From Azolla caroliniana (lineage: Eukaryota; Plantae; Polypodiophyta), in assembly GCA_043228905.1 (NCBI GenBank), contig JBHGNT010000003.1, positions 8,556,001 through 8,620,000 on the forward strand: a stretch of DNA of 64,000 nt, in the 5' to 3' direction. Every line of letters begins with the position of its first letter. Position 1 is the stretch's first letter. This document shows positions 5,882-61,367 of this stretch, one piece after another. The notes beneath the pieces were generated by a model. It saw only the letters and a program-made list of their open reading frames with translations, was not told the origin of the DNA and did not search any database. Both the position numbers and the translations under genes were made by a program.

Positions 5882-5898
5882 TGGTGAACCCGATGTGA
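5882..5898 (+). promoter_or_regulatory. Primer binding site complementary to the tRNA-Trp 3' end
   Basis: TGGTGAACCCGATGTGA, one mismatch to the reverse complement of the plant tRNA-Trp end TCACGTCGGGTTCACCA (recalled sequence); perfect copies in C and F. Confidence 0.85.
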
Positions 5899-5920
5899 AT
5901 AGGCGGCAGAGGAGTAGAAG

Positions 5921-11000: not shown

Positions 11001-11522
11001 CCGGCAGAGCTTATGTTCGGACAGAAGCCGATCATGCCAACAGAGCGAACGATCTCCTCGTGGGCCACGGTGGACTGGAGGGATGAGATGAGCCGGGAGG
11101 AACTATTGGCGGCACGGATTCGACAGCTCGAGCGGAGGCCGGAGGTCGTAGAGCGAGCCGCAGAGAAACTTCGGGTAGCGAGGATAAGGAACAAAGCCCG
11201 GTTCGACCGAACACACCGGCTCCGGCCAAGGAAGATCGAGGAAGGCGATTGGGTGCTAGTCTACGACAACAACCTCGACAATAAGCACAGGGCCACGCGG
11301 AAGTTTGCGAGGAGGTGGTTTGGGCCTTACGTAGTAACAGGCGCCAACGACAATGGGACGTACCATCTCGCGGAGCTCGACGGTACGAGAATGGCGATAC
11401 CGGTAGGGGGGAAGAGGATCAAAGCGTTCAAGAAACGACACGACGGCGAGCCAGAGCTAGGAGGCATGGATAGCAACGACAAGCAGCCCGAGGTGGAGGA
11501 CGAACCGGTAAACGAGGAATAA
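8031..11522 (+). pseudogene. Element B ORF2: RT, RNase H and integrase in the -1 frame, with several point stops
   Basis: 8052..9968 (LPQGGTNS..FLDDVPIKG; VTVDTSPTG..KRELWG), 9981..10289, 10341..10535 (HHCC zinc finger), 10620..11522 (DDE core, RWFGPY). Confidence 0.92.
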
Positions 11523-12238
11523 AAGCAAGGACCGGTTTTCTCCAGTAGGAACCCAATTTTGGCGCATACCGGTGGATGCGCGGTTAGGTGGGGGCGGATG
11601 TCGTGAAGAAAACCGTCCCCAGGCGCAAACCGTGTATAGCGTGTGTGAACCGGCCCTTACAGGTGGACACGCCCCTTGTTGTATAGTAGATAGGTAGGCA
11701 CAAAAGTCGAATCCTAGGTAGCAATATTCTATAGAGAGAATTAATGTGATGTAAACGGGTGAAACGGCCTCCCTCCTTGAGCTATAAAAGAGAGGGAGAC
11801 GGGGAGAGAATGTATCGCGCGCTAGAGGGGACGAAGTGCTGTCGGACTGGGACCGAGCTCTTCTTCTCTGTCGTTCTCCATAGTTTTCTTTTGCGCAGGT
11901 TCTCAGGAGACTGATTCTGCTCCGTGGAACGCCAGTGTGCTTCCGGCAGAATCTCCATCTTGCTCCCCTGTGTGCGTGGGTGATCAGGCGTCAGCATCCA
12001 TCTCGCCGACCTGATCGGCTGTAACCGTTCGAGTCGTCTGCAAACATACATATTTTATTTACATATGCTAGTGTTCTCAACTCGTGTCTCCTGTGTTGTT
12101 GGGCCGCGTTCCCGTGCGCTTCTTTGTCTATACGTGTGTGAGCGTCTCTCTCTTTCCTCCCCTTTTCTCACCTATTCCTCGGTCCAAGACCCCAGTGGTC
12201 CCGCCTTGTTTTCCACGCACGCGCGTAATAACGCGACA

Positions 12239-15200: not shown

Positions 15201-15954
15201 GGGCGCTTCGTTGGGTTTGTTGTGGTCCTTCTTCGAAGTGCGTTGATAGTGAAGAACTATTTCAACGGCCTCTTCGAAGGATTTTGGATCCTTATCGTGC
15301 ACTATCCAATGATAGTCCGAATTGGGGATGCCATTGACAAAACAAGCTATTAACCAGTTGTCCCCTTCTAGACCTGATTTTTGGATTTGGGTTCTAGCAT
15401 GGTGGACATAGTCTTCTACAAAGGAAAATTTCTGACTAGAGAGGCTCATTAAAGCTTGTGCTGCCTCGGTTCTAGAGGGAGGTTGCAGAAATTGGCCCTT
15501 GAAAACTATGACAAAATCTGTCCAGGTATCAGGCAATTTCCCCAAAGTACGGAGCCCACGCCACCAGGCGGCAGCCTTACCCCCTAGTTCTCGGCCGACA
15601 TATGCAATCTTCGTACTATTTGGCATGGGATAGAGCTCAAAATGAGACTCCCATCGGCCCAACCACGTGCAGATTGCTTCTTCGGTTCTTTCCTTTTTTT
15701 CTCTCGTAAATGGCTTAACGATAAACGATGGCTCACCCTGTCACTCATCAGGTCTATTAGTCTTACGTTGTAAACTAATGACACGTGCCTTGAGAGCACT
15801 TTGAGATTACCAAAGTTCGGTCATTTGTTGAGCGGTGAAACTAAGGTATTGGGTTATTTGCGAAAAATACATCTCAATGGACATTTGTCCAGGAGGATTC
15901 CCTTGAGTTCCTTCCGCTTGAGCAGATGACATCGGGTCGTTATTTTGAGCCATT
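12239..15954 (-). pseudogene. Element A gag-pol (gag, aspartic protease, RT, RNase H, integrase N-part) with stops and frameshifts
   Basis: ORFs 15036..15662 (gag-like), 14252..14944 (ILFDSGSSHNF), 12815..13939 (MPFGL..FLDDILVYS; ETDASDYAIG..EKELFAV), 12128..12640 (WESISMDFI..DGQTERVNQ). Confidence 0.92.
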
Positions 15955-17145
15955 AAATGATTATTTCTGGAAAAGAAATAGGATAAGGTCAAAGAGATAG
16001 TCATAACATCATGTCGTGATGTAAACATATCATGGGCGAACATTAATTGATATCATTATCTCATGTCAATACCCCTCTAGACGTATGAGATGAGGTTCAA
16101 GATCAGGTTACTATGGTAACACAAAGGTGTTTTAAAAAACATGGGGGTGACAAATAAATGTCTTTATCTGATCTCTATATCGATTTTTTTCATGGTGGCT
16201 CCCCGAGGCTCAACCATGTATGTTCGCGTCATGAATAGTTTATACACGAAAAAAATGTTAACAATAAACTATGTTTCTGTGCCCACATATGTGGTTTCGG
16301 CTCTTTAAGTCCTATTACGAGGACCCCGAAGTGCACTTAGACCTTAAGTCTAAACATGTGTTATAGTCATATATGTATCAACGATGTTGTATGGTCTTGG
16401 TTATATTTGAACTGGAGACCTCGAGAACAAATGCATTAAACACTTGAGCCAACCAAGTAGGTTGCTCTTCTTGAATGTTTAATGTTTCATGCGTATAAGA
16501 GATATGCAAGGCATGTGCCCATATATGTTTTATTAAAAGAAACATATATGTCAAGAGTCCTTATTTTGCCCTCATTTACTACAACTATGTTGGTACGTTA
16601 CCTAACCTCAATTCTCGTAATTACGATGGCATACGCCAAAGTGCAACCTAATGGTCAAGCCAAATGAGCCCTCTTTTCGTAGTAGGCCCACGTGGCCCAT
16701 CACATGGTTACATCATTACGAATGCCTCTCGTAAGAATGATCTCATGGTGGCATCGTATCCATGTAATGAGGGAAGGATGTTGGATACGTGTGTCATAGG
16801 AGTGACCTCACATGAAGTGGGTCAAGCCCTACGTACTCAACATCATTATGGTTATTGGCGTTTCTTTACGTAACGAAATATCGAAGTCACCAATGGGGAT
16901 TTCAACAATAAAAAATTGTTGAAAAAGGGATGGTGACAACGCTATTCTCACAAAAATGTGAGGACGGCCACCAAGATCCTTTCCCCGAAAAGGAAAACAT
17001 TCGATTTAAAATCATGTAATAACTTAAATACACATATGTATATTATCACATATATACGATCAACTACGTATACACGTGACCACATATGCCTATATAAAAC
17101 AAATCGTTATATTTCATAGCAAAAAATGACGTAATCGAGATAGGT

Positions 17146-17392
17146 AATTGAGGCATATACCTCTACGCACAAGAGACATCCAAAAATAAGGGTTAATCGT
17201 AATACGCAATTGAGGTATTGACCTCTTATGCATATGAGACTAAACACATATCATTTACAACGAATCGAGGTATTGACCTCATACGCAAACGTAACATATG
17301 TTTGTGAACGTAATACACAATTGAGGTATTAACCTCGTGCGCATAAGACGCTCATCACATATTCAATATACGTCAAATGAGGTATTGACCTC
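17146..17392. repeat. Five-unit array of palindromic GAGGT-ATTG-ACCTC motifs in the 5' leader of element A
   Basis: Cores at ~17146, 17208, 17263, 17319 and 17375; period 55-62 bp. Confidence 0.85.
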
Positions 17393-17647
17393 GTGCACAT
17401 ATGTAAATGTTTTATATAACCAATTAATTACCACTACAACATCATTGAATCTATAAAAAAAATTACATATTAACCATACACATGATTAACTTGGGAGAAG
17501 AAAGAATAGAAAAAACAAGAAAGATTACCGAAGTTCTTTTGTTGATCGTTGTTTGGATCAAGGCCGACCGCACATCGATCCATCACCATCAATCAAGAAC
17601 ACAAAACACAACAAAAGAAACATTAGAAAATGAGCTCTGATACCAAC

Positions 17648-18110
17648 TGTAAGAGACATAGACTAATGTAAGCATTATATAAGGATAGAATATAGATGAA
17701 TAGATAGATCTAGAAAGGAGAGAGAGAAAGAAGGGTGTCGATCCACCTGACCACCCCCGAGCGAAGGGATCGAGACGGACTCGAGCCTCGATCGGCGTCC
17801 CATACCACTGCTGTGGCGTCGAGTCATACCTGGTGCTAGCGTACTCGCTACAAGAGTTGACCCACCACAAGACAAAGTCTCGACGTAGTCAACAAGATGA
17901 TGAAATGAGGGTAGCTAGGCCTCTTATTTATAGCAATACCCAAGGCCCCCAGGCAAGTTCACACTTGGCCTAATGGGTTGTCTCAATCTTGAGGATTAAA
18001 AGTAATCCTCCCCTTCTTTACACTCTCGTTTAACCCTCACACTTATCCACGTGTATAGAATACTACAGTAAATTTTGACCACGAGATATTAGATGGTCAT
18101 GCCCGTAACA
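17648..18110 (-). repeat. 5' LTR of element A
   Basis: Adjacent to the iMet PBS; followed by TSD ACAAG. Confidence 0.95.
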
Positions 18111-19013: not shown

Positions 19014-22000
19014 TGTCGTGCCTTTCAGCTCCGGATCGTTGCGTGAGTCGGGTGGGAACCGCCGAGGTTTTGGACTAGGAGGAGGAAGAATTTGAGGCTA
19101 ATCTAGTTATGAATATGAATAGATTATAAGAAAGAGATATAGAAACTTGTGAATCCCACAAGTATAATTGTTTTAGTTTATCTAAATCGTAGTAATAAAT
19201 TGAAATAATTTAGAATAGATTAGAGTAGATTGAGAAAAGAGATCAAACCTTGTGAATCCCACAAGTATTACATTAATCAATATTTATGTAAGAATATGAA
19301 TTTAGATTGAAAGAGATAGATTATCTTAAACTTCGTGAATCCCACGAGTATATTTTATTGATTGTTGGTGTTTTAGGAAATATATCCAATTTCCCAAATA
19401 TTTTTCACACCTATTACATTGTGCTCCCCATCCTTATGTAGTGATGGGAGAGACTAAGCATAGCTACATGCTTTTTTTCTAATATGTTCATGCACACTAA
19501 ATGTGCATGTGATGCTTTTCTAATCCTTGCTTTTATTTGCTAAATATAGTGCTCATGCACGCTAGATGTGCATGAGTCACTTTTTAGTTGCTTGCGTTTT
19601 TCTATAAAATATTCACGCACTCTAAAAATGCACGATTTACCTTTTAATAAAGGTAGGTGCAAATAAAGCACTTATAGTTATTAAATCTATTTGTAGAACA
19701 CTAAAGATAAGGTAGCATAATGGTAAAGTTTAGGTTTGGCTACGTGGAGGTACAGGGTTCTAATCTTGCCCTATGCACGTGATAAATATCTTGATATATT
19801 ATTTTATTTATTTATATGTAATTAAATCGGTTATATTATTTTTTACTTTTTCACGTAGTGTACGAAATACACTACGACACTCGCCCCCTCCGAACCCGCA
19901 CATCCTCCGGTATGTGCCGAAGTTGCCGATGCTCGTTGTCTCCCCTTCATCCTCCGTTTGTCCCGCTATGTCAACTTTGTCTCTCCATTTTGAGTAGACC
20001 CATTCTTCCCACCCGAACCATTGTCGCCATCCGATCCACCATATTCTTTGTTCTCTCTCGTCATATTCTTGGCCCTTGTCATTCGTGGTAGTGTCTTTTA
20101 CTGGCCTCTTTCTTGTCTTCATCAACCTTGACTTTTTTCCGGATCGCTCTCGTCCGATCGACTTTCGGTTTGATCGGCTTCCGATCGGATTCGTATTCGG
20201 CCGAATCGGAATCGGTTGTTCGGTTTCGATTGAGTTGGTCTCCTTCCGGCCCGGTTTCGATCTATCGGTTTTGGTTTCGGTTGGCTTTCTTTTCCTCGTT
20301 TTCACCAGTCTCGACCGGTCCAACCTCCGGTTGAGTCGGATTAGCTTCTTTCCGGATCGGTCTCGTCCGATTGGCTTTCGGCTAGGTCGGCTTCCATCCA
20401 TATTCGCGTTCGGCCAAGTCAGACTCGGTCGATCGGTTTTGATCGAGTCGACCCCTTTTCGGGTCGGCTTTCTTTCGGGTCGTCCTACGGCTGAATCCTC
20501 ATTCGCCCGGTTCGGCTTTCGTTTGTGTCGTCTTTCGGCCGAATTCTCTTCCTTTCGGTTCGGCTTTCTTTCGGGTCGACTTTCGGTCGAATCCTCTTTT
20601 ACCCGGTTCGGCTTTCTTTCGGATCGGAATCCCGTCCGGATCACCTTCCATCCTAACTGGCTTCTGACTTTACCTTTCTTGCCGCCACCTCCCATCTCTC
20701 CGGTCTCACGTTGCTTCTCAGACACAACCGCCGAAGTCTCTAGGATTAGTGGGTAGGAATCCTCGGTATTATCATCCTCTGTCATTTCAACCATAGCCTC
20801 CTTCTCGGCTATCTCTCCGTCGTATGAATCGGCTTCGACCTTTGTTTTCTCTCCACCACCTTCCGTCTCTTCGGTCTCACGTTGCCTTTCGAACGCAACC
20901 GCCGGAGTCTCTAGATATTGTTGGCATGAATCCTCGGTATTACCTTCTTTCGTAGTTTCACCCTTAGCATTCTTCTCGGCTATCTCTTCATCGTATTCGT
21001 CGGCTTCGACATTCGTTTTCTCTCCGCCACCTTCCGTCTCTTCGGTCTCACGTTGCCTTTCGATCGCAACCGCCGGAGTCTCTGGAATTAGTGGTGGGGA
21101 AGTCTCGATATGGCAATCTGCCATTGATTCGTCCATAGCCACCTCCGATTCGATTTCGTCTTTTGTGGCTACCTCCTTAATCACATCCGCTTCACACTCT
21201 TTATCTGCATCAATTATGCAAACATCTATTATGCTTACCCCTTTTTGACCCGATGTCTCGAGCACTTGTATCCCGAAATTTCCTTCTACACTTGAATTAT
21301 CGGCCTTATCCTTCGCCATCGTTCTTTCACAAGACGAGTGGGTGTCTTGTTCCACTCTTTCTCCCGTGGTACCATCATGTTGTATTTCGGCCTTCATATT
21401 GGCTTCATCGTTTTTCCTCAATCGACCATCCTTCATGGGCCATGTCGTTGTTGACGAGATTCTCAGCTTCCTTTCATCATGTCTTCGGCATACCCTTTCG
21501 ACTTTAGCCCAATCCTCGGTAAGGCCGTTCGCACCGTCATCATCTTCGAGTTCGATCCCAATGTCCATCCTTTCTTTCCGATCGATCGATCTTACGAACA
21601 TTAAGACTTTATCTCCTCCCACCAATCTTCGTTCCCGCTCCGAGAGTCGAGCAAAACGATGCTCGAACTCTAGGAACGCTTGCGTTGCACTTCGGTGAGT
21701 CTTCTCCGACGCCACCCATTCGTCGAATTCTCGTCGATCTCGTCCCGTCCATCTCTCATAGTCATATGCCTCCCGTAAAGCTTCTTCAAAGGACTCCCAT
21801 GTCGAGTTTTGTTGTTGTATCTTGTGGATTCTCTCTTGTAGTTCGTCCGAGGCCACCCGACTAAAGGATATCACTTGCAATCCTTCCGGTATCCGATATT
21901 GCATCATCTCCGCCTTATATTCACGTAGGTAGCGTGACACACCCTTACCGTTGAATTCCCCGTTTCGTCGCAGAAGCCGCTCTACTGCCGCCTTCATCTC

Positions 22001-22985
22001 CGACATCGCTCGTTGTTCTTGTAGCATCCGCTCGAACATCATCATCATCGTTATGCTCATTGCCTCTTGTTGATTCTCCATCTCCTTGCCACCCGCCTTC
22101 ACGTCGGGTTCACCAACTGTGTCGTGCCTTTCGGCTCCGGATCGTTGCGTGAGTCGGGTGGGAACCGCCGAGGTTTTGGACTAGGAGGAGGAAGAATTTG
22201 AGGCTAATCTAGTTATGAATATGAATAGATTATAAGAAAGAGATATAGAAACTTGTGAATCCCACAAGTATAATTGTTTTAGTTTATCTAAATCGTAGTA
22301 ATAAATTGAAATAATTTAGAATAGATTAGAGTAGATTGAGAAAAGAGATCAAACCTTGTGAATCCCACAAGTATTACATTAATCAATATTTATGTAAGAA
22401 TATGAATTTAGATTGAAAGAGATAGATTATCTTAAACTTCGTGAATCCCACGAGTATATTTTATTGATTGTTGGTGTTTTAGGAAATATATCCAATTTCC
22501 CAAATATTTTTCACACCTATTACATTGTGCTCCCCATCCTTATGTAGTGATGGGAGAGACTAAGCATAGCTACATGCTTTTTTTCTAATATGTTCATGCA
22601 CACTAAATGTGCATGTGATGCTTTTCTAATCCTTGCTTTTATTTGCTAAATATAGTGCTCATGCACGCTAGATGTGCATGAGTCACTTTTTAGTTGCTTG
22701 CGTTTTTCTATAAAATATTCACGCACTCTAAAAATGCACGATTTACCTTTTAATAAAGGTAGGTGCAAATAAAGCACTTATAGTTATTAAATCTATTTGT
22801 AGAACACTAAAGATAAGGTAGCATAATGGTAAAGTTTAGGTTTGGCTACGTGGAGGTACAGGGTTCTAATCTTGCCCTATGCACGTGATAAATATCTTGA
22901 TATATTATTTTATTTATTTATATGTAATTAAATCGGTTATATTATTTTTTACTTTTTCACGTAGTGTACGAAATACACTACGACA
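19014..22985 (-). mobile_element. Element C: very young pol-less tRNA-Trp-primed LTR element (3972 bp) with one long ORF
   Basis: 866-bp LTRs at 19014-19879 and 22120-22985, only one substitution seen; TSD CCGG (19010-19013 / 22986-22989); perfect Trp PBS 22099-22115; PPT next to 19880. Confidence 0.95.
19808..22081 (-). CDS. Intact ~757-aa Gag-derived protein: capsid-like N-terminus, acidic PET repeats, basic repeats, Trp-rich C-terminus
   Basis: ORF 19808..22102, first ATG at 22081; N-terminus aligns with B gag (FNGKGVSRYL..VLMFVRSID..GLTEDWAKVERVC vs FSGKDATSYL..LLFVKSVD..GLTTDWAVVKRVC); no PR, RT or INT motifs. Confidence 0.8.
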   Translation of the reverse strand: MENQQEAMSITMMMMFERMLQEQRAMSEMKAAVERLLRRNGEFNGKGVSRYLREYKAEMMQYRIPEGLQVISFSRVASDELQERIHKIQQQNSTWESFEEALREAYDYERWTGRDRREFDEWVASEKTHRSATQAFLEFEHRFARLSERERRLVGGDKVLMFVRSIDRKERMDIGIELEDDDGANGLTEDWAKVERVCRRHDERKLRISSTTTWPMKDGRLRKNDEANMKAEIQHDGTTGERVEQDTHSSCERTMAKDKADNSSVEGNFGIQVLETSGQKGVSIIDVCIIDADKECEADVIKEVATKDEIESEVAMDESMADCHIETSPPLIPETPAVAIERQRETEETEGGGEKTNVEADEYDEEIAEKNAKGETTKEGNTEDSCQQYLETPAVAFERQRETEETEGGGEKTKVEADSYDGEIAEKEAMVEMTEDDNTEDSYPLILETSAVVSEKQRETGEMGGGGKKGKVRSQLGWKVIRTGFRSERKPNRVKEDSTESRPERKPNRKEENSAERRHKRKPNRANEDSAVGRPERKPTRKGVDSIKTDRPSLTWPNANMDGSRPSRKPIGRDRSGKKLIRLNRRLDRSRLVKTRKRKPTETKTDRSKPGRKETNSIETEQPIPIRPNTNPIGSRSNRKSIGRERSGKKSRLMKTRKRPVKDTTTNDKGQEYDEREQRIWWIGWRQWFGWEEWVYSKWRDKVDIAGQTEDEGETTSIGNFGTYRRMCGFGGGECRSVFRTLREKVKNNITDLITYK

Positions 22986-29795: not shown

Positions 29796-32700
29796 TGTCG
29801 TGAAAATCCGTCACTATGTGCGGATCGTGAGGTGGAACCGCTGGGGTTCTGGACCAGAAGGATTCGAAGTTTGTACTAGCTTTAGCGAGAAAGTATTTAA
29901 GATAGATTGAGAGAGATTGGTATGGAGAGAGAGAGATTGAGATAAAGATTAAACGCTTAACTTTAGATTTGAGAGACAAGATACATCACCATTAGGATAA
30001 TTTGATTTATTATTATTCGTTTCTTCCCAATTTCTTCATTAGTCCCATCTTGCTTGACCTCCATTCTTTTACAGATCCCCCCATGCATATGATGCATGGG
30101 AGGGTGCAAGACATGCATGTAACGCATGAAATGCATGCGATGCATGTTTGCCATGTCACTTATCCAAGCTCTCATGTATGAGATTTTACATATGAAAACT
30201 ACAATGATAAAAATATAATTTTAAAGTCATGACTTAGCTTAGTGGTAAGTCATGTGGCTCTTATGTAGGAGGTGCAAGGTTCAAATTTTTACTTACACCC
30301 CCTATAAATACAAAATTTTACTAGGCTTTCATCTTGTATTTACAAATGTTTAATTGCATATTACATCTTCAGTTGACCTCCAATGAACCGATGGAACTGT
30401 TAGACAATTTTGTTTGTTTCACACTGAAAAATCTTCAAGACACTGTCCGTCGCGATCAACCTATTCAACTGACCTGACCGATCCGTCTGTCTGGTCCCGA
30501 CCGGTTCGATCTGCATTCCGGTTCTGGTTCCGTTGCCGTCCGTTCAGGTCCGGTTCTCCAAAACCATTTTGAGCAACTTGGCCACATCCATTCATTCAAG
30601 TTATACAACCCAACCTTTTTGTGCTTGTAACACATAGATAAAATATAAAGAGATATGGCCCTACTTATATACTCTTGAATCTTGATGGTGTCATATCTAT
30701 GTGGGATATCTCACCGTTTTGTTTTCCTCTTCTTCTTCTCAAACTTCACACTCACATAACATAACACTAAATTGTCCGTTTCACATGTAGTAAAATGCAT
30801 TCAGAAGCTCTTGAAGATATCCATCTTTTTGTACCAAGATATTAAACTAATATAAAATAGTATCTTCACTATTATTGTTTCATATTGTGTGTGAAGAACC
30901 ACACTCGATTTTGTATGTTCCTCGCAATTTTCACACCATTGTCGAAAATCTTCACGACATCCACCCCCACCAAACCACACGTCCTCTGGTACGTGCCACG
31001 AAGAGAGAGTGTGAGATTTTAGCTACGGTGATCAATCAAATTCTCCATGTCCTCGTTCACATAACTCAAGTATGTAGGTTCGAGGTCAAGATCCTCATCT
31101 TGTCTTTTCTTGAAAATCTTTACTCTTTTTCCCGCAATAGGTATGGCCAACCTTGATCCGTCTAGCTCCGCAAGGTGGTATGTGGCATTGTCGTTGGGAC
31201 TTGTCACCACATATGGTCTGAACCATCTTCTTGCAAACTTTCTTGTTGTCCTGTGTTGATTGTCAAGGCTGTTGTCGTAGACCAATACCCAATCTCCTTC
31301 TTCGATCTTCTTGGGACACAGTTGATGTGTCTTGTTGAACCGAATCTTGTTCTTCACTCGGGATGCCTCCATCATCTTTCACGCTTTTTCTAAATCTTCA
31401 GGTCTTCTTTCAAGCTGCCTTATCCATGCTGCTAATAATTCTTCTTGGCTCATCTCGTTCTCCCATAGTATCGCGACCCATGAGGTGATCGTCCTTTCGA
31501 TGGGCATTACCGGTTTCTGTCCATACATAATCTCTGTTGGCATATACCATTTCACTGAACTGTGTGTAGTTCTGTCGGCCCACAAGGCATAGGGCAATAG
31601 TCGTGGCCAGTTCCCGACTCGACCGTTGCATGCTCGTACGATGGCTTTGACGATTGGTCCATGCCCTCGCTAGATCTTCCCATTTGCTTCTGTATTGTAG
31701 GTAGTCATAAGGGAGAGCTTCACGCCTAGTCGTTCGAAGAGCTCCGTTGCTTCGTGTGCATCCAACTCCCCTCGGTAGGCCACTATCTTTCCCACACATC
31801 CGTATCGGCAAACAACCTCTTCGAGTAGAAATTTGCAAACAGCTGACGTCATCTTATTTGTCAAGGCCCGTCCTTCCACTTGATTTGTTAAGTCTTCTCT
31901 TGCCAGAACTAAGTACTTCATTTGTCCCACTCCCATTGGCATTGAGACCAGATCCACCATCCATTTGAAGTGTATGGTGAGTGGGTATGTCGGATGCAAC
32001 TCATCACGATGATGTATGCTCAAATGTACTTGGCAAGTTTCGCATGTGGACACGAAATGGAGTACATCTTTGTACATACTTGGTCACCAGTACTTCTCCT
32101 TCAACTTTTCGAACGTCGCCCATGTTCCTCTATGACCTGCCCAAGGACTCTCGTGGAATTCAGTCATTAGCGTCACGTGCTCTTCTTTCTTCACCACCAC
32201 TCGACATGGCATTCCTGTCCTTCTTTCTGGGTGTCGCCAGAGGAATCCTCCCATTAGGAAGTATTGGTAAGCTTTCTTCCAAACTCGTAGAGCCTCCTCC
32301 TTCGACAACGAAGCATCCACCATCATTGTTCTTAAGGATCTGCCGATCAGTAACCACTCTCCTTCGTACTCGTCCTCGTTGAAGGCGTGGAATGTTAGCG
32401 TGCCCTTCTCTTCCACCAATAGTAGATCCATCTTGAAGAAGTCAAGGGTGACGTCTTCATCTTCCGAAACCATGTCACTTTCATTCTCAAATCTCGCCCT
32501 CGACATCATGTCAGCCATGGCGTTCTTCTTTCCTGCAATGTGGTGGATCTCTGGGTTTAAAGACTTGATATCGGCGATCCACCTTAGCATTGCTAGATCT
32601 GGTCTCGCACATCCTGAGATCATCCCGAGGATTGGGAGACAATCTGTCTCAATTATCACTTCCAACCCGATCAGGTAGTCTTTGTCCATCTTCACTGCAG

Positions 32701-47700: not shown

Positions 47701-49190
47701 GAACTACACACAATTCAATGACAGGGTATATGCCGACAAAGCTTATGTATGGACAGAAGCTGGTAATGCCCATCGAAAGGATGATCACCTCATGGGTGGT
47801 GATACCATGGGAGAATGAGATGAGCCGAGAAGAATTATTAGCGGCACGGATAAGGCAGCTTGAAAGAAGGCCTGAAGATTTAGAAAATGCGTGAATGATA
47901 ATGGAGGTAGCCCGAGTGAAGAACAAGATTCGGTTCAAGAGGACACATCAACTACGTCCCAAGAAGATCGAAGAAGGAGATTGGGTATTGGTCTACGATA
48001 GCAGCCTTGACAGTCAACTCAGGACAACAAGAAAGTTCGCAAGAAGATGGTTCAGACCGTATGTGGTGACTAGTGCCAATGACAATGCCACATACCACCT
48101 TGTGGAGCTAGATGGATCAAGGTTGTCCATACCCATTGCGGGAAAAAGAGTAAAGATTTTCAAGAAAAGACAAGACGAGAATTCTGACCTCGATCACCTC
48201 GACGATGAAGGTAGTAGGATTGAACCGACAGACTTGAGTTATGTGAACGAGCACATGGAGGAATTTGATTAATCACCGTAGCTGAAATCTCACACTCTCT
48301 CTTCTTGGCACATTGTCGTGCCTTTCGGCGCCAGATCGTTGCGTGAGTCGGGTGGGAACCACTGAGGTTTTGGACTAGGAGAAAAAGAATTTGAGACAAG
48401 TTTAGTTATGAATAGATTATAAGAAAGAGATATAGAAATTTCGTGAATCTCACGAGTGTATTGTATTCGATTAATCAATATTTAGATAAGAATATGTATT
48501 TAGATTGAAAGAAAGAGATTAAAAAGAACTTGTGAATCCCACAAGTATAGATTATGTCGTGAATCCCACGAATATATTTTATTAATTGGTCAATCCTCCA
48601 AAAATAATCAACCCCTATTACATTGTGCTCCTCATCCTTATATAGTGATAAGAGAGTCTTAACAATCCATACTTTTTCTATAGATAGACTATATTCTTTA
48701 TCTAAAGTGATCATGCTTTTTCTAACTTGTGCGTTATTATTATTATTATTATCGACTATAGCGTTCATGCACGCTAGATGTGCATGCGTAACTTTTTCTT
48801 TTTTTTATGCGTTTTTCTTTCAACTAAAGTTTATCCTAGGTGAACTTACATTTGTATGTGGGACATCTACTTTTTAATACTAATGAAATGGTAAGGTTTC
48901 ACATTATTAACATGGAGGTAAAAGGTTCGAATATTGCCCTATGCATGTAATATATATTTTTATACTTTCTTCTATTTACAAATATGTCTCTTCATCCGGT
49001 GAGAAACTCTCACCGGCCTTCTTCATCCGGTTCTCACCGGGTCCTCCTTACCAGTTCCTCCTTACCGGTTTCTCCTTGCCGATTCCTCCTTGATCCGATT
49101 CCTTCCGGTTATCCTTACCGGGTCCTCCTTACTGGTTCCTCCTTGCCGATTCCTCTTTCATCCGATTCCTTCCGGTTACCCTTTTCATGT

Positions 49191-52100
49191 TGTCGCGTTA
49201 TTACGCGCGTGTGTGTAGAAAGGTGGGACCACGGGGGTCCTGGACTAGCGAGTGACAGAGCGCAGGAAGTCGTGCTTCACCCTTTTCGGGGCACCCCAGG
49301 AGCACACTAGAAGCAACCGAACGAGAGAGAGAAAGAGAGGGAGACAGAGAGGGAGCGCGTGCTTGACACCGACTCATGCATACACACGCACACACCGACT
49401 CGACTCACGCCCTTATGTGCAGGAACGCAGGAAAGGGGAAGTACCCAACACCAACAGAGACACGAGTATACACAGACAGACGCAAAAGTATGTATTACAA
49501 GGGAAAGAATACAACCCCGGCTTCGAGCCGGACCAAGCTAGGGTAGGTTACAACAGTAGTCTGCAGCCAAGGCGCCGTCCGGGGAGCTCTCGGGCTCGTC
49601 ACGCAGAGCGGGGTCTTGCATAGGAGACCGAGCGGGAACAACCCTCCACAGTCCACCCACACCGTGAAGAAGAGGAAGAAGAAGTAGAAGAACTAACCCT
49701 AAATCTAACGGTATACCCTCTAACAAAAAATGGGCAACCCCTCTACAAGGGACCATCCCTTCCTTTTATAGAACAAGGAGAGGGATGCGTTACAATGTGG
49801 GTTAAATCCTGATTTACATGGGATTCTTCGTCCCGACTTGACTCTTATTATTCACACAATTACATGAGGGAGAGTGCACATGGTGCACCCCGCCGATGTA
49901 GCCAATATTTCCCGGTTTCCGCCTCTGGACGAAATTCTTCACGACATTCGCCCCCATCTAACAACACGTCCACCACTATGTGCCAAATCTGGTGAAGGGT
50001 GAGAGATTTCGGCCGGTGAGAAACCGGTCTTCCGTAATCCGCACCCCGGCTCGCTGCCGGTTTGAACCATCAGCTTCGGTTCTACCTTCGCGCTTACCTC
50101 CCCGTAGGCTCGTTTGACTCGTCGATGGGTCCTTCGCCGCGATCTCTGTAGTACGCGTACTTCCGCTGGCCCTTGTTCGGCCGTATGCACGCTCCGTTCT
50201 CCGCCGTATGCTCGATGTCCTCCACTTGAAGAACGCCCATAGTGGCCCGCTTGGCCTCCGTCGACCATTCGTGTTGTCCTGATTGCCTTCCCATGTTGCT
50301 TCGCGTTGCCTTCGTCCTCTCGCCGCCACCTTCCTTCTCCATGGTCTTACGTCGCTGCGTCGGCTCGAACCGCCATGGTCTCCGGAACGGTGTGGAGGAT
50401 CTTTTTCTGGCCTTCTACGCGCTACCTCCGAACTGCGCAACCCATCTTCGCACTCGCCTTTCCACTCCGGCACCTCCGTGTGCCGCATACCCTCGTCCGT
50501 TGTTTAGCACTGCCTGTGCCGTACTCCGATTCATTGCACGCCTTGTCGGCCCCTTTCTTGGCTAGATCGTGCACCGCCGCTCACCCGCATACCAGTGTCC
50601 TCCGCATCCGAGGAACACCCCGTAGTAGCTCGCTTGGCCCTTCCCGTCTTCGTGCTGCTGCAACAGGTCCTGAGTTTTCCGCTTGCTGTCGTCCCCTCGC
50701 CCCCACCAGCTTGTCACCCCGGGCTTGCCGTGTCAGTCTTCGCTACCTCGACGGAGCTATCGAGATCTACGAAGCAAGTGTGGAGGATCCTCCTCTGGCC
50801 TCTCTTGCCATCCCCTAACTCCGACCCTGTGCAATCCACTAGGCACCCGTCACCTCGTTCCCGGCACCTCCCTTGTGCCGTCTTCTGCTTCCTTTGTTCG
50901 GCACCACCCGTGCCGAACACCGTCCAATAGTCACGCTTCGATCCGGCCCACGATGGCCACTTGCGAGACTCTTGTTCCGTCCCAGGTGTGCCTTTTCGGC
51001 CCGACACACCTCCCCGGGTTTGCCCTACCGGCTCCTTCCGCTACCGTAACCGGCCGGTAAGGGCTCCACACTTCGTTCGTCCTGTCTTACCGACCTTTGT
51101 CGATGCCAGGTCCCGTCCCTTGCCGCCACCTTCCTTCTCCCTCGGTCTTACGTTGCCACGTCGGTCGAACAACCGTGGTCTCCGGAACGGTGTGAAGATC
51201 CCATAGGACCGGTCTTCGTTTCGTTGCTTGCCGAAATTCAGGGTGTCTTTGTTGGAGTCCCTCCCGGATTCTCCTCGTGTCTTCTGCGTAGCCGCCACCA
51301 ACCTCTCTCGGTCTCATGTTGCCACGTTGGCCGACCAGTCGGAGTCTCTGGTTTGGTGTGGGGATCCCGTAGGACCGGACTTCCTTACGCCCACTCACCT
51401 TGCCGGAAGGTTTGAGATGGTCCGTAGCCGCCTTGCAGGCCTGATACCTTCTTTCTCTACTTCCGTCGTCCGATCACGTTCACCTGCCGCCACCTATCTT
51501 CCCTATAGGACTCACGCCGGCACTCGGGCCGACCGCTGGATCGGTGTGAGGATCTTCATGGGACCTTGGTTTGCCCGCCCTTGTCCCCCCGCCACCACCG
51601 TCAATATCTTGGTCTTACGCCGACCGCGCTGCTGACTGCCGAAGTCTCTAGATCCAGTGTGAAGGATCCTCCTTGGGCTCCTCGTATCCTTGACCCTTAT
51701 CCCGGGTCTTCCTTCTTTTGCAAGTCGAGAGGGTGGCTTGCTCCACACCCTCTCCCGTGGTACCGACGTACCGTGTTCCCGGCCTCTTCATAGGCCTGCT
51801 CTCTTCCTCCCTCCCGCAATGGTTATCTGGGAGTCCACTCCGCCCGGTTCTCGTCCGGGTCCGTTCGTCATTCTCCGGATTGCCGGGTCCCGTTTTCCTG
51901 TCGCCACCGACCTCTCCTATAGGACTCACGCTGGTACTCGGGCCGACCGCCGGATTGGTGTGAAGATCTCATGGGACCGGTCTTTGTTCTCCTCTTCATC
52001 CCCGTACTTCTCTGTAACTTGTCGCCACTCTCCTTGTTGCGTTCCCGCCTCCATCTTCCATCTCTTTCGGTCTTACGTTGCCCCGTTGACCGAACAGCCG

Positions 52101-54637
52101 TAGTCTCCGGATAGGATGTGGCGTAACCGATTTCGCAACGTCTTTTGGCAACTCGTCCGGGCCACCGCCCCTTTTAGTGGTGTCGGTGGATAGCATCTGC
52201 TCTGTGATCAATCAAGCCCCGCCTGAGCTTGATTCTCCAATGTCCGGAGTTTCGGCTCCGATGCCGATCTTGCCAGACTCGTTCCGAACCTCTGATCACC
52301 CTCCTTCCAATTCCCGACCTTCGCCCGCTCGGTCTTTCTCCCCATGTAAAATAGGGCGGCTCGCCCCACACCCTCTCCCGTATCGGCACCTTTATGCCGA
52401 ATCCGGCCCCGATCGAACAATCCACGACCGGATTATGCTCCACCCGTATCAGAGCGTCACACGTTTCGGTCCCCGGTCGGGTTGTCCCTTGGTCTCTTCG
52501 TCGACCTTTTCGCGGGCCTTCTCCCATCCATCTTCGATGGCATCGTGCCAGGACTCCTTGATACCGTCATCCATCTCCGCAGTCTCACTTGGGCATAAGG
52601 GCCCGAATGCCGAGTTCTCCGGAATCGGGTTCGAGGGCTTTTGTCCGCTCCTTCCCCGTATCGTCTCGCCGGTGATTCTTGGTCTCTCGCAGCCGTCTTC
52701 CTCCTCTTGGGACTTACGTGGGCACTCGGGCCTGACTATCGTCGTCTCGGGAGCAAGTGTGAGAAGACGCAAAGAATCGCCCATCCGTTTTACGCCCTTG
52801 TCCGTAGCCACCGGCTCTTCGTGGTCGGCGGTCGTCTCCTTACCGATCGCGCAAGCCCCGTCTGGGCTTGCTTCTCCAATGACCGAGGTTTCGGGCTGAC
52901 ACGCCTGACACCGCTGGTTCCAACGTTCCGATCCCACGATCGGTATCTCGGCCTCGTCCTTGGCCGTTCTATCTCCGCAAGTTGAGAGGGCGTTTTGTTC
53001 CGCACCCTCTCTTGTGGTACCGTGGTACCGACCTTCCGTCATCGCGTGGGGCAAGTCCGTCTCCTCAGTCTCGGCTTGCGGCCTCGATCTTTCCTCTTCC
53101 TTGAGCATTGCCTCGAGAGCTGCGTATGCCTCCAAAATCCTGGCCCCAACGCCGACCCTTGCCGACTCTCTTTGCCGTTCGGCCTCTTCCCGCTGTGATG
53201 GCATGCCGTCGCGCGCCTTCCTCTTAGCCTTTTCGGCTCGCTCATTGTCTAGACGTTGGCACACCCTTCCAACCTTCGACCAGTCCTCCGAAAGCCCATT
53301 TGCTCTGTCATCATCTTCGAGCTCAATCCCGATGGCCTCCCGTTCCGCTCGGTCAATCGACCTGACGAACAATAGGACTTTGTTCGCCCCCACCAAACCT
53401 TGTTCCCGTTCCCGGAGCCGAGCAAGCCATCGCTCGAACTCCCAAAACGCCTTCATTGTGCCACGGTGGGTCTTTGCCGATGCTACCCACTGGTCGAAGT
53501 CGTGCCGTCCCCGGCTCTTCCGCCGTCCTCCATATGCCTGCAGGGAGCGCCTCTTCAAAGGCCTCCCACGAACTATGAGCTTGCCGGAGCTCCTTCACTT
53601 CCGCGTGTGTACGGACGACGACAACCCAACAGAAGAACTCCAGCCTCAATGCTTCGTCCACGTCTCGCTCCTCCATTTCCGCATTGTAGGCTTCCAAGTA
53701 AGATGGGACTTCATCCCCGTTGAAACGGCCGACTCTTTTGACCACTCGCTCAACCGCTTGTTGCGCTGCTTCTCGCCTCATCACCACTCGTGCCGACTCC
53801 AACACCACTACGGCCACCATCACCGCGAGGTCGTCGTCTTCCGATTCCATCCTCCCTTGCCGCCTTTCACGTCGGGTTCACCAAATATGTCGCGTTGTTA
53901 CGTGCGTGCGTGTAGAAAGGAGGGACCACGGGGGTCCTGGACTAGGGAGTGACGGAGTGCAGGAAGTCGTGCTTCACCCTTTTCGGGGCACCCCAGGAGC
54001 ACACCGGAAGCAACCGAACGAGAGAGAGAAAGACAAGGAGAAAGAGAGGGAGCGCGCGCTTGACACCGACTCACGCACACACACACCGACCCGACTCACG
54101 CCCTTGTGTGCAGGAACGCAGGAAAGGGGAAGCACCCGACACCAACAGAGACACGAGTATACACAGACAGACGCAAAAGTATGTATTACAAGGGAAAGAA
54201 TACAACCCCGGCTTCGAGCCGGACCAAGCTAGGGTAGGTTACAACAGTAGTCTGCAGCCAAGGCGCCGTCCGGGGAGCTCTCGGGCTCGTCACGCAAAGC
54301 AGGGTCTTGCATAGGAGACCGAGCGAGAACAACCCTCCACAGTCCACCCACACCGCGAAGAAGAGGAAGAAGAAGTAGAAGAACTAACCCTAAATCTAAC
54401 GGTATACCCTCTGACACAAAATGGGCAACCCCTCTACAAGGGACCATCCCTTCCTTTTATAGAACAAGGAGAGGGATGTGTTACAATGTGGGATAAATCT
54501 TGATTTACATGGGATTCTTCGTCCCGACTTGACTCTTATTATTCATACAATTATATGAGGGAGAGTGCACATGGTGCACCCCGCCAATGTAGCCAATATT
54601 TCCCGGTTTCCGCCTCTGGACGAAATTCTTCACGACA
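49191..54637 (-). mobile_element. Element F: pol-less tRNA-Trp-primed LTR element with a GC-rich LTR whose U5 end resembles B
   Basis: LTRs 49191-49946 and 53888-54637; TSD ATGT/ACGT; perfect Trp PBS 53867-53883; PPT next to 49947; no PR, RT or INT motifs internally. Confidence 0.93.
49976..53850 (-). pseudogene. Element F Gag-derived long ORF, frameshifted, with an expanded PET-type repeat tail
   Basis: 53353..53850 (VGRFNGDEVPSYLEAYNAEM) and 52449..53558 (VLLFVRSID..GLSEDWSKVGRVC; PETTIVRPECPRKSQEEE); PETTVVRPTWQRKTEGEG in 51087..51398. Confidence 0.75.
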
Positions 54638-55066
54638 ACGTAGTGTACGAAATACACAACGACAACGTACCGGAGGATGTGCGGTTTGGTGGGGGCGGAT
54701 GTCGTGAAGATTTTCGGCAACGGTGTGCAAATTGCATGGAATGTACAAAATCAAGTGTGGTTCTTCACACACAATATGAAACAATAGTAATGAAGATATT
54801 TTTTATATCTTGGTAAGAAAAGATGGATGTCTTCAAGAGCTTCCGAATGCATTTTACTATATGTGAAATGGACAACTTAGTGTCAAGTTATGTGAGTGTA
54901 AAGTTTGAGTGTAAAGTTTGAGAAGAAGAAGAGAAAAACAAAACTGTAAGATATCCCACAATATATAAGCAAAGCTAGAACTTATTACTTTCTATTTATG
55001 AGTGGAGAACAGAATGTTCTTGGGCTAAATTGTGGCTTAATTGCATGTAATGGTTTTGGGTGACCG

Positions 55067-55290
55067 GACGGTGACGGAGCCGCAACCGGAACCGGATGGC
55101 GATGGACGATAACAGAGCTGCAACCGAAACCGGACGGACGACGATGGAGCTAGAACCGAAACTGGACGGACGACGATGGAACCGAAACCGGACGGGGATG
55201 ACGATCGAACTAGGACCAACACCAACATTGGAACTGAACCGGATAGACTGGATCACCATGTCGGATGCGGACCGGATGGACCGGATAGAC
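55067..55290. repeat. Degenerate tandem repeat (gaaccg/gacggacgacgatgga units) in LTR K
   Basis: Repeated accggacggacgacgatgga-like units; a shorter equivalent lies at ~30476-30555 in E. Confidence 0.7.
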
Positions 55291-55858
55291 GGATCGATCA
55301 GATAGGTTGATCGTGACGATTTTGGTGTGAAATGAACAAAATATCTAGACTAAAAAACCTAGTAAAAGTTTGTATACAAAGGGATGCAAGCAAGGTTTGA
55401 ACATTGCACCTCCAAGATAGGAGGCAATAGCCTTACCACTAAGCTAAGTCATTTTCTTAAAAATGTTTTTTCTATCATGCATCACATGTAATCCATATAC
55501 TTTTACTTGATTGAGTGACATGGTTGTCATGCATCACATGTAATCCATGAGCACCAAATGGCAAACATGCATCACATGCATTCCATGCATTGTATGCATG
55601 TCTTGTACCCTTACATGCATCATATGCATGGGAGCATCTATAAAAGAGTGGTTGAAAAATATCAAAGGGGAGCGATGTATTAATCAAGAATTTAATAATA
55701 ATAATAAATTCGTTATCCAATTGATGATATATCTTGTTCTTCAAATCTAAAGTCAAGAGTTCAATCTTAAGCTCTCTCTCCATTTCAATCTTTCTCAATC
55801 TAAAGTCAAGCGTTCTATCTTATCTCAATCTCTCTCTCTTTCAATCTATCTTAAATCC

Positions 55859-58800
55859 TGTAAACGTAAGTGTTTGCGGAAGCATAAAACAGAGAACAAC
55901 ACAGAGAGAGAGAGAGCGAGAGAGACAGAGAGAGTAGAACGCTATTTCAAAAAAAAAATATCAAGACTCTGTAAAACCACACTGTGCTAAGTAGTACTAT
56001 TTATACAAGTCCTCTTGGGACTGACAGAAGTACCATGTACTTCAATGCTCACACGAGCATCTGACACTTACTACGAGACTATAGATACCTAGTAGTCTAT
56101 CCTATTCTAGGCTTCCGATTGGACTGCCGGTTACGGATTGCACCCGGCCTCCACTGCTTGCCGGTTCGGTTGCTCACCGTCATACCGATCCGTTTCGCCC
56201 GATCCGTCTCGCTTACCGGCTCCGGTTGAGCTTGCCGCTCAACACTCCCCCTCAAGCTCAACCTGAGGTGGGGTCGTAGTGTCGACCTCTGTGGCAGTCG
56301 GTTCTTTCAACCGACTTCTCCTGGCGTCACTCTGCCTTGCTCGCGCTCCTCGTCCGGTCCGGTCCCGTTTGCCGCGACCCCTTTGGTTCTGTGCGCCTCG
56401 ACCCTCTCGGTCGGCATGTCTACTCAATAGGCCCATCTCAGCAGTCACGTTGCTGTGACTCCGGCGCTTGCTGATCCGTTGGTTTTCCCACGATGGCATG
56501 GACTTCCGCTGTGTCCGTGTCCCCTTGGTCTTCAGTCGATCCGACTCATCCGGATCCATCTATTGATCCGAGTCAGCTGTCTCCGACTCGTTCCAGCTCT
56601 TGTCCGAATTGGTACACTCCGATTCGACTTCCGGCTTCAGGCCTCTCACCACATCGGACCACTTCCGAGTCTTGGCCTTCTCCATGCTTCCCTCGGCTTC
56701 TTCAGCCGGTGAACCGAAATCGAATTCTTCATTCGACTCTGCATCATGGTCAGTACCGTCGTGATGACCTCCCCACAACATGCACTTCTCTTCCTGAGTG
56801 CACAACTCTTCTTCACAGCCGCTTGCTCCGACCTATTCGGATGTGTCGACTTCCTTCGTCGACTCGGCTTCCTTCATCTTCTTGTCTCCTCTTCTTCCGG
56901 CTCTCCTCTTACCGACGGGTTCAACAGTTTTTTTGCCTTTGCCCGTTTCGATAGGGACTTTGCCCTTGCTTCTCCCCCTCAAGTGCGGCACGTCGAGATG
57001 CTGAATACCAAGCATGTCGGTAAAGTGCTGCAACTTGTCCGATCCGAGCGGCTTGGTGAAGATGTCGGCAACTTGCCGATCCGTATGAACATACCGTAGG
57101 TCAACTTCACCACTCAGGACCCGCTCACGCAGGAAGTGGTAGTGCACCTCGATGTGCTTTGTGCGAGCATGGAACACAGGGTTCCTGGCGAGCTGCAGGC
57201 TGCTCATGTTATCGCAGTAAATCGGGATCGGGGTCGATACCTCGATCCGCAAGTCTCGCAGCAGTCGCCGAAGCTAGATGGCTTCACAAGTGGCAACGGT
57301 AGCGGCCCGGTACTCAGCCTCAGTGCTTGACAAAGCCACTGTGGGCTGCTTCTTGCTGCTCCACGCAATGGCCGCGCTACCTATGGAGAACATGTATCCG
57401 GAAGTGGAGCGGCGATCAGACGCATCGCTGGCCCAATCAGCATCTGTGTAACCGACAAGCTCTTCGGGTATACCTCGCCGGTATAGCAGTCCCCAGTCCT
57501 TAGTGTCGCTGACATACTGTAATATTCGTTGCGCACATTGAAGGTGCTCCACGGTCGGCTTCTGCATGAACTGACTTACCATGCCGATCGGATAGCTGAT
57601 GTCGGGTCGGGTGATGGTTAAGTAGATCAGGCTTCCGACAACCTGTCAGAATCGTTTCTCATTGCAGGCCGGACCGGAGTTGGGACGGAGCTTCTGGTTC
57701 CGGTCCAGGGGTGTGGAGACAGGTCGGCAATCCGTCATGGCGAACTTATACAGCATATTCAACACGTAATGTCGTTGTGAGAGCAATATGCCGTCGGGGG
57801 TCCGGATCACTTCGATCCCAAGAAAATAATGAAGGTCCCCCAGGTCCTTCATTTCGAATGCGTCCGACAACTGGGACTTGACGCGGTTGATTTCGGGAAG
57901 ACCCGGTCCGGTGATGACTAAATCATCCACATACAAGAGTATACATACCGGACCGTCAGAGCCTTGCCAGATGAACAACGAAGAGTCCGACTTAGAGACA
58001 ACAAACCCCAGCTTACGCAACCGGTGCGTGATCTTCACGTTCCAAGCTCGGGGGGTTTGCTTCAAGCCGTAAAGTGACTTCTTCACTCGGCATACCGCCG
58101 ACTTGTTCATCTCCGATTGAAATCCGGGGGGCTAAGTCATAAAGACTTCTTCTTCAAGCTCTCCTTGAAGGAAGGCGTTCTTCACATCCATCTGGTGAAG
58201 ATGCCACCCCCTTGCCGCAGCAACCGCCAGTACTACACGAACCGTCGTCATCTTCGCCACAGGAGCGAAGGTCTCGTCGTAGTCGATTCCGTGGGTCTGC
58301 GCGTATCCCTTCGCCACTAGCCGGGCTTTGTACCGGTGAACAGAACCGTCGGCGTTGTACTTGACCTTGTACACCCACCTGCATCTGATCGGTTTACAGT
58401 GATGGGGAGGATCAACTAGGTCCCAAGTTTCGTTGGCATCGAGTGCCCGCATTTCTTCGTCCATAGCGGCACGCCAATTTGCGTCCTTTGCCGCTTCTGC
58501 GTAGCTCTCTGGCTCACGCACTTCTGTCACTTTAGTCATGTACGCATAATGATGCGCCATGTATTCATTGTACCTGTACCGCATGACGGGATCCTTCTGG
58601 CGGGTTGATCGGCGCAATGCACCGTCACTTGATTTGAGGCCCTTCTTGGCCAGTTCGGTCTTCGTTGCCAAAGATCTGCCTTTCTCCTTTCCGGAGTCGG
58701 ATACGCACCGATCCGACTCATCGATGCCGGTTTCGAATTCCGGCATCTTCCTTTTCCCTTTCTCTTTGCGTGTGAACCATTTCCTCGGTTCCTTGCGCGG

Positions 58801-60666: not shown

Positions 60667-61367
60667 TGTCGTGATGTGGCATGTCTAGTGCGAGAAAAAC
60701 TCAAAAAATGAGGATCCACACACATTTCACGAATACTTGTAAAAATGAAAATAAATAAACCTAGGTCACAATGGCATTGAGTGCATGTAGAGGGTTGCAA
60801 GTAGGATTTGAACCTTGCACCTCTAAGGTAAGAGGCAATTACCTTACCACTAAAGCTACTACAAAGTGCTTTAGATGTTCTATATTTCTTTCTCATATTC
60901 AATATTCCGTAGGAAACAAACGAACAAAACCGTGTACACAAAACCACGGTTTTAAGCCCATGGTTTCCTGCAGGTCACAAAGCAAAACTGTGTGCACAGA
61001 AACCATGGCTCCAAGCCCATGGTTTTGTGCATGGACAAACCTATAAAACCCCTAGTACGGCTTGTGTAAGGGGGGGCTCAATATGATATGACCATCATCA
61101 TCACCATCAATAATATAAGCTTCTATTTCTTCTTCTTCGCATCTATCTTGTAATTATTTATCTACTTCTGAAAGTGTACAATCTTCAATCTTCTCAAGTG
61201 TAATAGGTCTTCCTCCAATCTTACATTCACATCGTCCTCTTCTCAATACCTTGACGAACATCCTCCTTGGTCCAAGACCCCGGTGGTCCCGCTCAAGCGA
61301 AGCACGCTCGCACGCGCATCTTCGCGACATATTTTGGCAAACCCGACGTGAAGAGCGGTAGGGGAGG

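Follow-up and report, generated by a model that had tools for sequence, protein, structure and literature searches.

What is a tRNA-like promoter doing inside long terminal repeats (LTRs) of full-length retrotransposons, and why does it point away from the element that carries it? The question arises in a 64,000-nucleotide stretch of the fern Azolla caroliniana (contig JBHGNT010000003.1, positions 8,556,001 to 8,620,000 of the forward strand; hereafter the window), which a Pfam domain search and self-BLAST resolve into a nest of LTR retrotransposons with gypsy and copia domains. Six copies of a module that combines an A box and a B box lie there, all antisense in the U3 region of gypsy LTRs (Table 1). 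The host elements, here called E, K, G and C, together with a solo LTR like those of C, belong to a Phygy-like lineage whose primer-binding site (PBS) we take to match tRNA-Trp. We give about an even chance to the explanation that the module is a retained site for TFIIIC and RNA polymerase III (Pol III), which would insulate the LTR promoter within nested islands of transposable elements (TEs).

An earlier note on this DNA had placed six such modules in the window, with a tRNA-like distance between their boxes, and each was confirmed where it had been placed. In E, TGGTAAG begins at 30243(+); its start is 55438(−) for K, 60849(−) for G, and 48889(+) for the solo LTR, whereas C has TGGTAAA from 19721(+) and 22827(+). 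The distance from this A-box core to GGTTCNA (TGTTCAA in K) is exactly 28 nt in every window copy, which is the register of the genome's own tRNA-Thr(TGT). With an independent weight matrix, trained on 15 real tRNAs only, the window copies score 13.8–24.7 bits; locally shuffled LTRs reach the threshold of 14 bits in 2 of 120 cases. The LTRs of elements B and F, from which the module had been reported missing, indeed gave no matrix match at 8 bits or more. Element direction was judged from the PBS, the polypurine tract (PPT), and the direction of open reading frames (ORFs). The antisense orientation claimed earlier for every copy applies to the whole window but not beyond it, since related LTRs also contain sense-oriented modules. 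In the E copy, the B box has decayed by a C61 to T change that produces a T5 run at 30286–30290; in the K family, TTCAA is found in 28 of 30 copies.

The motif is widespread in the 523-Mb host genome, to which all genome-wide motif counts refer. TGGTAAG-N25–31-GGTTCRA has 6,491 matches versus 81 for the reversed control, and at the wrong spacing (N35–41) the numbers are 54 and 51. Among the first 30 motif matches, 10 were in LTRs of the Trp-primed clade, 16 in one short interspersed nuclear element (SINE) family, 3 in another SINE-like repeat, and 1 was unassigned. We then scanned 117 5' LTRs chosen by primer site: 30 were taken without further selection, 27 were picked by LTR end, and 60 by junction type, which favoured AT-rich families. 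In the AT-rich LTRs, the motif with up to two mismatches occurred antisense in 73/82 and sense in 5/82; one of the 73 is a chance match on a neighbouring LTR of the other lineage. The spacing was 27–29 nt in 72 of the 73. The tRNA-trained matrix at its 14-bit threshold gave 60/82 antisense and 9/82 sense for the same LTRs. For GC-rich Trp-primed LTRs it gave 4 antisense and 6 sense matches in 35; several of these fall on an adjacent LTR or on one B-box-like site close to the 3' end of the LTR. LTRs of Met-primed elements contained the motif in 0/30 and matrix matches in 0 (antisense) and 1 (sense) of 30. Of 80 Trp-type LTRs fetched from metagenomes, the majority belonging to a single accession series, 56 had 600 bp or more upstream, and a motif scan of these found 16/56 antisense and 2/56 sense. 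The module is hosted by autonomous 7.1–8.1 kb elements with reverse transcriptase (RT), by 5.4–6.5 kb elements, and by 3.6–4.1 kb derivatives with one ORF. It is present, always with TTCRA, in LTRs that are 99.5–100% identical within their element, autonomous or not (L152, L153, L164, L165, L261, L262, L265, and L266).

Conservation was assessed in 63 modules from 10 subfamilies, a set that is partly circular because the modules were found by motif. Between subfamilies, identity is 0.93 in the A core, 0.84 in the B box, 0.84 on the variable-arm side, 0.60 on the anticodon side, and 0.52–0.67 in the flanks. The values for C-like versus E-like modules are 0.92, 0.76, 0.73, and 0.43, respectively, with flanks at about 0.5. 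In an unanchored BLAST comparison of 10 LTRs, most cross-group pairs were without any similarity, and the module was the sole common segment in E versus G, C versus L423, L154 versus L423, and L165 versus L423. The observation that the module persists in LTRs that otherwise align poorly is thereby borne out. The earlier note had also proposed two tests, of which one came out clearly (the boxes are more conserved than their flanks) and the other poorly (the tRNA covariance-model score, given below, is weak). No sampled family is fixed for TTTGA, and several are fixed for TTCAA. An excess of TTCRA over TTTGA across the genome (6,491 versus 1,306) was considered as proof of selection on the B-box CpG and dropped as support, because it is confounded by families that started from TTCAA; within subfamilies there is no such asymmetry, and one shows the opposite.

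The module occurs in two gypsy lineages. Junctions of an LTR with a tRNA-Trp-type PBS number 4,674 versus 0 in the control. The RT of the Trp-type elements forms a clade separate from the chromovirus-like rows, and its named relatives come from one fern and from liverworts. A 4-bp NCGN target-site duplication (TSD) is exact in 14 of 16 two-LTR Trp-type elements; of the other two, one has a 1-base difference and one has no TSD. Phygy has been described as having a tRNA-Trp PBS, a 4-bp NCGN TSD, and a compact internal region (Neumann 2019, PMC6317226), and the elements here are alike in all three. Their length of 7.1–8.1 kb is at or slightly below the published 7.7–10 kb, and, unlike the elements here, Phygy as described in that paper's account of the lineage comes with no mention of tRNA-like LTR modules. 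The second lineage, at ~26–29% RT identity, carries the antisense module at the very start of U3. It has no tRNA PBS; the sequence past its 5' LTR complements a stretch inside the LTR, as judged by eye, which suggests self-priming. Also by eye, its members have a 5-bp TSD (L152 and L166) and a length of 5.4–6.5 kb. Tcn1 chromoviruses are characterized by self-priming, a 5-bp TSD, and 5.5–9.4 kb in the relevant part of PMC6317226, and the second lineage agrees with them in priming, TSD, and size; a check for a chromodomain gave only a weak tblastn match, at 28–31%, with element B's SH3/chromo ORF. Element B itself (window 4063–18110), a gypsy element that does have a chromodomain, has a Met-type primer site and, unlike the self-priming lineage, is without the module. 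In L151 and L152 (LTR positions ~10–65), the module of the self-priming lineage consists of an inverted repeat and folds as a single long hairpin (z −5.4).

Within the LTR, the main module faces outward, away from the element, and lies upstream of a TATA-like box; these boxes were called by motif only. The distance from the antisense A box to the TATA-like box is 175 bp in E (CTGTAAAA), 206 bp in K (CTATAAAA), 198 bp in G, ~250–310 bp in C-like LTRs, and ~120–170 bp in the self-priming lineage. A single LTR may contain up to three modules. In the young L153 family, two antisense modules (23–29 bits) are joined by a single sense module (28 bits), which lies ~130 bp past the TATA-like box; outward-facing units thus bracket the promoter. 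The same arrangement is found in the metagenome relatives L422 and L451, and the mid-U3 of L153 and L422 is common only in short stretches at the B boxes. A degenerate sense module after the TATA-like box was matched in 6/20 E-like LTRs and in L439, and is plainer in the E relatives L087, L141, L149, and L439 than in E itself. As C-like LTRs gave 7/54 such matches, which were uninspected, the E-like count alone supports a sense module weakly. In the metagenome family of L413 and L453, a sense module lies upstream of the TATA-like box and is followed by T runs; that of L413 ends at such a run ahead of the box. Between module and TATA-like box, AT-rich Trp-primed LTRs also contain a block of CATGCA/ATGCAT palindromes (window 30085–30150 and 55520–55630; L153, L154, and L439), which we take to resemble the RY boxes bound by B3 factors.

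The module is not a functional tRNA gene. ARAGORN found 0 tRNA genes in the window, a whole-window Rfam scan gave no RF00005 match, and the G module, aligned alone to the full RF00005 model, scored 13.4 bits against a cut-off of 29. Pairing is 0.31 in the acceptor stem, 0.47 in the anticodon stem, and 0.36 at T49–51, versus 0.41 by chance; it is 0.66 in the D stem and 0.91 at T52–53. The values for the K family are 0.46 (acceptor), 0.39 (anticodon), and 0.32 (T49–51). The earlier note had seen a covarying anticodon stem, CCTCY/RGAGG, and this did not hold up. The stem is out of the anticodon register, where cmscan places AUUGC/CUUAG with 3 of 5 pairs broken; no double change occurs among 30 K copies, and all pairs of the stem are intact only in G, in the K family, and in one further E-like copy. 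The suggested descent from a tRNA or SINE head fared better. One E-like subfamily best matches tRNA-Arg(TCT), with 11/13 identities over positions 26–38 (shuffle p 0.0002, without correction for the 13 tRNAs and ~13 groups tried), and this likeness in the anticodon arm supports a real tRNA ancestry. The other module groups had no consistent parent among the 13 tRNA types compared. Around the LTR modules, no TSD or A-rich tail was visible by eye in flanks that are too diverged. GGTAAG was also considered as an antisense splice donor and rejected, since this leaves the fixed distance to the B box unexplained.

These features suggest a mechanism in which TFIIIC, probably together with TFIIIB and Pol III, would bind the DNA at the A and B boxes. 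The bound complex would shield the element's Pol II promoter against silent chromatin nearby and against transcription coming in from outside, presumably to the benefit of an element that lives in nested TE islands. The module would have been captured from the head of a tRNA-derived SINE, tRNA-Arg-like in the E/K/G branch, and probably on more than one occasion; an RNA of ~85–130 nt may arise as a by-product. A TFIIIC site in DNA accounts better than a structured RNA for boxes that are conserved around a freely changing spacer, at a fixed distance, and that occur repeatedly, in variable number and in mixed orientation around the Pol II promoter; the mixed orientation and variable number, along with the lost acceptor, anticodon, and T49–51 pairing, likewise favour a role at the DNA level. 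Precedents exist in yeast, where TFIIIB and TFIIIC form barriers, and in animals, where tRNA genes act as insulators (PMC9540200, in part). Pol III complexes also block neighbouring Pol II transcription, as described in PMC4228148.

Several observations weigh against such an insulator. The motif is found in 0/35 GC-rich Trp-primed LTRs of the primer-site sample, and 40/56 metagenome Trp-type LTRs are without an antisense match. The GC-rich clade is abundant, accounting for 26 of the first 30 PBS junctions, and young (LTRs of L158 and L257 are 99.9–100% identical). In one C-like subfamily, picked for its frequency among TTTGA matches, the B box often has C56 changed to T: a hand count of the first 100 of its 148 matches gave 58 with the change, and so do 25/40 fetched copies, where it is common to LTR pairs and small clades, partly by descent. 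The B-box CpG of this subfamily is kept in 9/40 copies, below seven flanking CpGs (13–30/40). Within other subfamilies, TTTGA is about as frequent as TTCAA (13 versus 11, four groups), although such decay in both directions is expected after insertion. The largest young subfamily has a decayed 5' half of the A box, folding of the B-box half (see below) points to an RNA-level constraint as well, and the portions of PMC9540200 that treat barriers do not show such a role for tRNA genes or TFIIIC in plants. From the prolific GC-rich clade it follows that any benefit of the module is not essential. Unconstrained trees place this clade within the module-bearing families (96/96 and 90/80). Grouping all module-bearing families in one clade is not rejected, however (approximately unbiased test, p 0.21, two long-branch rows left out), so the GC-rich clade may have lost the module or may never have had it. 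Its subfamily L073, L084, L089, and L128 has a sense B-box-like sequence, GGTTCGAGAC(C), located ~104 bp from the 3' end of the LTR; it scores ~19 bits, its A box is poor, and it may be a separate B-box-only site.

The best surviving alternative, which we consider rather unlikely, is that the modules are small Pol III genes whose RNA of ~85–130 nt, antisense to U3 and ending in a 3' hairpin, regulates the element RNA or acts as a decoy. By sequence, the units do have the features of type-2 Pol III promoters: in addition to the two boxes at tRNA spacing, an internal T4 run between +1 and the B box is absent in 15/15 groups (~0.2–0.6 expected from shuffles), and the first T4 follows at a median of 13–53 nt past the B box in 14/15. 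These groups are related, so the counts are not independent; the T5 run of the E copy crosses the end of the B box outside the test window, 3/30 K copies do have an internal T4, and in the self-priming lineage T4 was not found. The B-box half folds better than shuffles (mean z −1.3; below −1.5 in 11/26, versus 2/26 upstream and 6/26 downstream), and RNAalifold predicts for 29 copies a 6-pair hairpin with two doubly changed pairs. The consensus energy of this hairpin is only −1.4 kcal/mol, however, and whole units range in z from +1.3 to −5.4 with no common fold, the lower extreme being the long hairpin of the self-priming lineage, itself a point for an RNA product. Simian foamy virus LTRs offer a precedent (PMC3993851, relevant sections), but a free spacer and the coexistence of sense and antisense units speak against an RNA gene.

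A quite improbable possibility is that the module is a passenger, an old SINE head in ancestral LTRs that was copied without benefit and looks conserved through recent segment exchange or slow decay. The genome offers an abundant tRNA-headed SINE with TSDs and poly(A), whose head has GGTCATGGGTTCRA in common with the module of the self-priming lineage; the module-less clade thrives, one subfamily mostly has a broken B box, and the 95% identity of C and L423 over 39 bp could be exchange. Yet neither drift nor block exchange gives conserved boxes around a spacer at 0.43–0.60 identity, and the near-constant spacing, the presence in two lineages, the multiplicity within single LTRs, and the fixation of TTCAA in several sampled families but of TTTGA in none also speak against a relic. 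The SINE family in question, ~210 bp long (L112:1480–1700, L114, L120, L095, L103, L106, and L117; contig C1), has a tRNA-like head, an A-rich tail, and target duplications of 14–25 bp at GA-rich sites. Just inside its tail lies another A/B module, which is antisense, so that its two modules face each other. Another repeat (L107, L109, and L110) has an A/B module like this antisense one, sometimes in tandem ~160 bp apart.

Very unlikely, finally, is the opposite effect, in which the assembled Pol III complex would weaken or confine Pol II activity from the LTR as self-restraint, or would tether nested insertion. In its favour, yeast that loses TFIIIC shows de-repression of adjacent Pol II transcription (PMC4228148), and among the sampled Trp clades the GC-rich one, without the module, is the most abundant; against it, module-bearing families include very young, expanding ones.

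How do the insulator modules that we propose compare with known Pol III promoters in LTRs? Helenus (TRIMp3; Kojima 2024, PMC10886601) likewise has tRNA-like LTR sequence with conserved boxes. It is a short, non-coding, non-autonomous terminal-repeat retrotransposon in miniature (TRIM) of 311–1,263 bp, whereas the hosts here are 7–8 kb autonomous elements and ~4 kb gag-only ones. The Helenus promoter is proposed to transcribe the element and is oriented accordingly; the main module here is antisense in U3, with up to three modules per LTR, and its sense modules come after the TATA-like box or, in L413, end before it. The sections of PMC10886601 on TRIMs present Helenus, Cassandra, and Ajax alike as short, non-autonomous, and transcribed by their Pol III part. 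They argue that autonomous partners are unlikely to have long LTR stretches in common with TRIMp3, and they mention that "not a few" Repbase LTRs have tRNA similarity, with only TRIMs analysed there. Cassandra, to which the module had been likened, is similar in that a Pol III promoter domain is conserved inside plant LTRs. The analogy fails in mechanism, as the 5S-type domain of Cassandra is sense and drives the transcript of a non-autonomous element (PMC10886601, ibid.), and the main module here points away from autonomous hosts with a TATA-like Pol II promoter. The module-bearing elements are therefore not TRIMs of the Helenus or Cassandra kind, but a variation on that idea. The nearest case in an autonomous retroelement is that of simian foamy virus, whose LTR cassettes have A and B boxes and terminators; they make demonstrated microRNA precursors (PMC3993851, as above), in contrast to the tRNA ancestry, outward orientation, and lack of a common precursor fold here. 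The yeast tDNA/TFIIIC barriers and ETC sites, in which A and B boxes or B boxes alone act on neighbouring chromatin and Pol II (PMC9540200 and PMC4228148, parts cited), are host-encoded and fixed, while the modules here are mobile, many-copy, in a plant, and of putative function. A full-text literature search, with subscription journals, Repbase entries, and the supplements of PMC10886601 outside its scope, found no description of such modules in autonomous gypsy LTRs, and in the main text of a study of moss TE expression (PMC7466625) the terms tRNA, SINE, and Pol III are absent.

In published accounts, Pol III promoters within LTRs drive tiny non-autonomous TRIMs. Here full-length elements retain them, and the fact that they point away from the element and can flank its promoter implies another use. 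Somewhat short of an even chance, in our view, is the wider possibility that autonomous gypsy elements of seed-free plants repeatedly captured tRNA or SINE promoters as portable TFIIIC insulators bracketing their own Pol II promoter, and so seeded thousands of mobile boundaries. Plants would then have a tDNA-type barrier, and transposons a cis-acting means against silencing. If the modules bind TFIIIC, they would allow a direct, high-copy test of tRNA-type barriers in plants, with the module-less sister clade and the subfamily with the broken B box as natural controls. In such genomes, LTRs of this kind would also mislead the annotation of tRNAs and SINEs.

Table 1. Modules and host elements in the window (window coordinates; RT/RH/INT, reverse transcriptase, ribonuclease H, and integrase)
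Feature	Position	Strand	Remarks
E module	30228..30300	+	A box 30235-30245, B box 30278-30288; antisense in U3; 23.5 bits
Degenerate second A/B-like module, E LTR	29945..30003	−	sense, downstream of TATA-like box; coordinates approximate, by eye
K module	55383..55453	−	antisense in U3; B box G52 to T in window copy; 23.6 bits
G module	60793..60865	−	aligns to RF00005 positions 1-71, 13.4 bits; matrix score 24.7 bits
C module, 3' LTR	19706..19776	+	B box TTCTA; 19.3 bits
C module, 5' LTR	22812..22882	+	identical to 3' LTR copy
Module in C-like solo LTR	48874..48944	+	A box 5' half decayed; 13.8 bits
3' LTR of E	29796..30959	−	Trp-clade gypsy; RT/RH/INT remnants to right; TG..CA ends
3' LTR of K	54700..55900	+	E-like family; right end approximate, interrupted by copia-like sequence
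5' LTR of G	60667..61329	+	then tRNA-Trp-type PBS at 61335
Element C	19014..22985	−	4.0 kb; TSD CCGG; Trp PBS ~22102-22115
C-like solo LTR	48314..54664	−	two pieces: 48314-49190 and 54638-54664

The hosts within the window differ in completeness. The 3' LTR of E is bordered by a PPT immediately past 30959. Element C, with LTRs at 19014–19879 and 22120–22985 that are 99.9% identical, has no RT, and none was seen in G, a ~4 kb element with one ORF whose second LTR begins at 63984. Window positions 19014–22985 and 60667–64000, like L162, L265, and L266, are very young 3.6–4.1 kb Trp-primed derivatives with one long ORF, the start of which resembles the gag region of the autonomous elements and which has no Pfam match. 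The C-like solo LTR is split by a GC-rich Trp-primed element (49191–54637) whose LTR is without the module. The region 48314–54664 is thus nested on three levels, with the GC-rich element 27 bp within the 5' end of the solo LTR, and the solo LTR just upstream of the PPT of K. Elsewhere in the genome, tRNA genes (Gly, Arg-CCT, Lys, Ile, and Arg-TCT) were observed in long tandem arrays with many variant copies, on contigs C9 (17.78–17.84 and 19.70 Mb), C18 (7.91–7.97 and 9.60 Mb), and C5 (17.99 Mb), and in L048 and L049.

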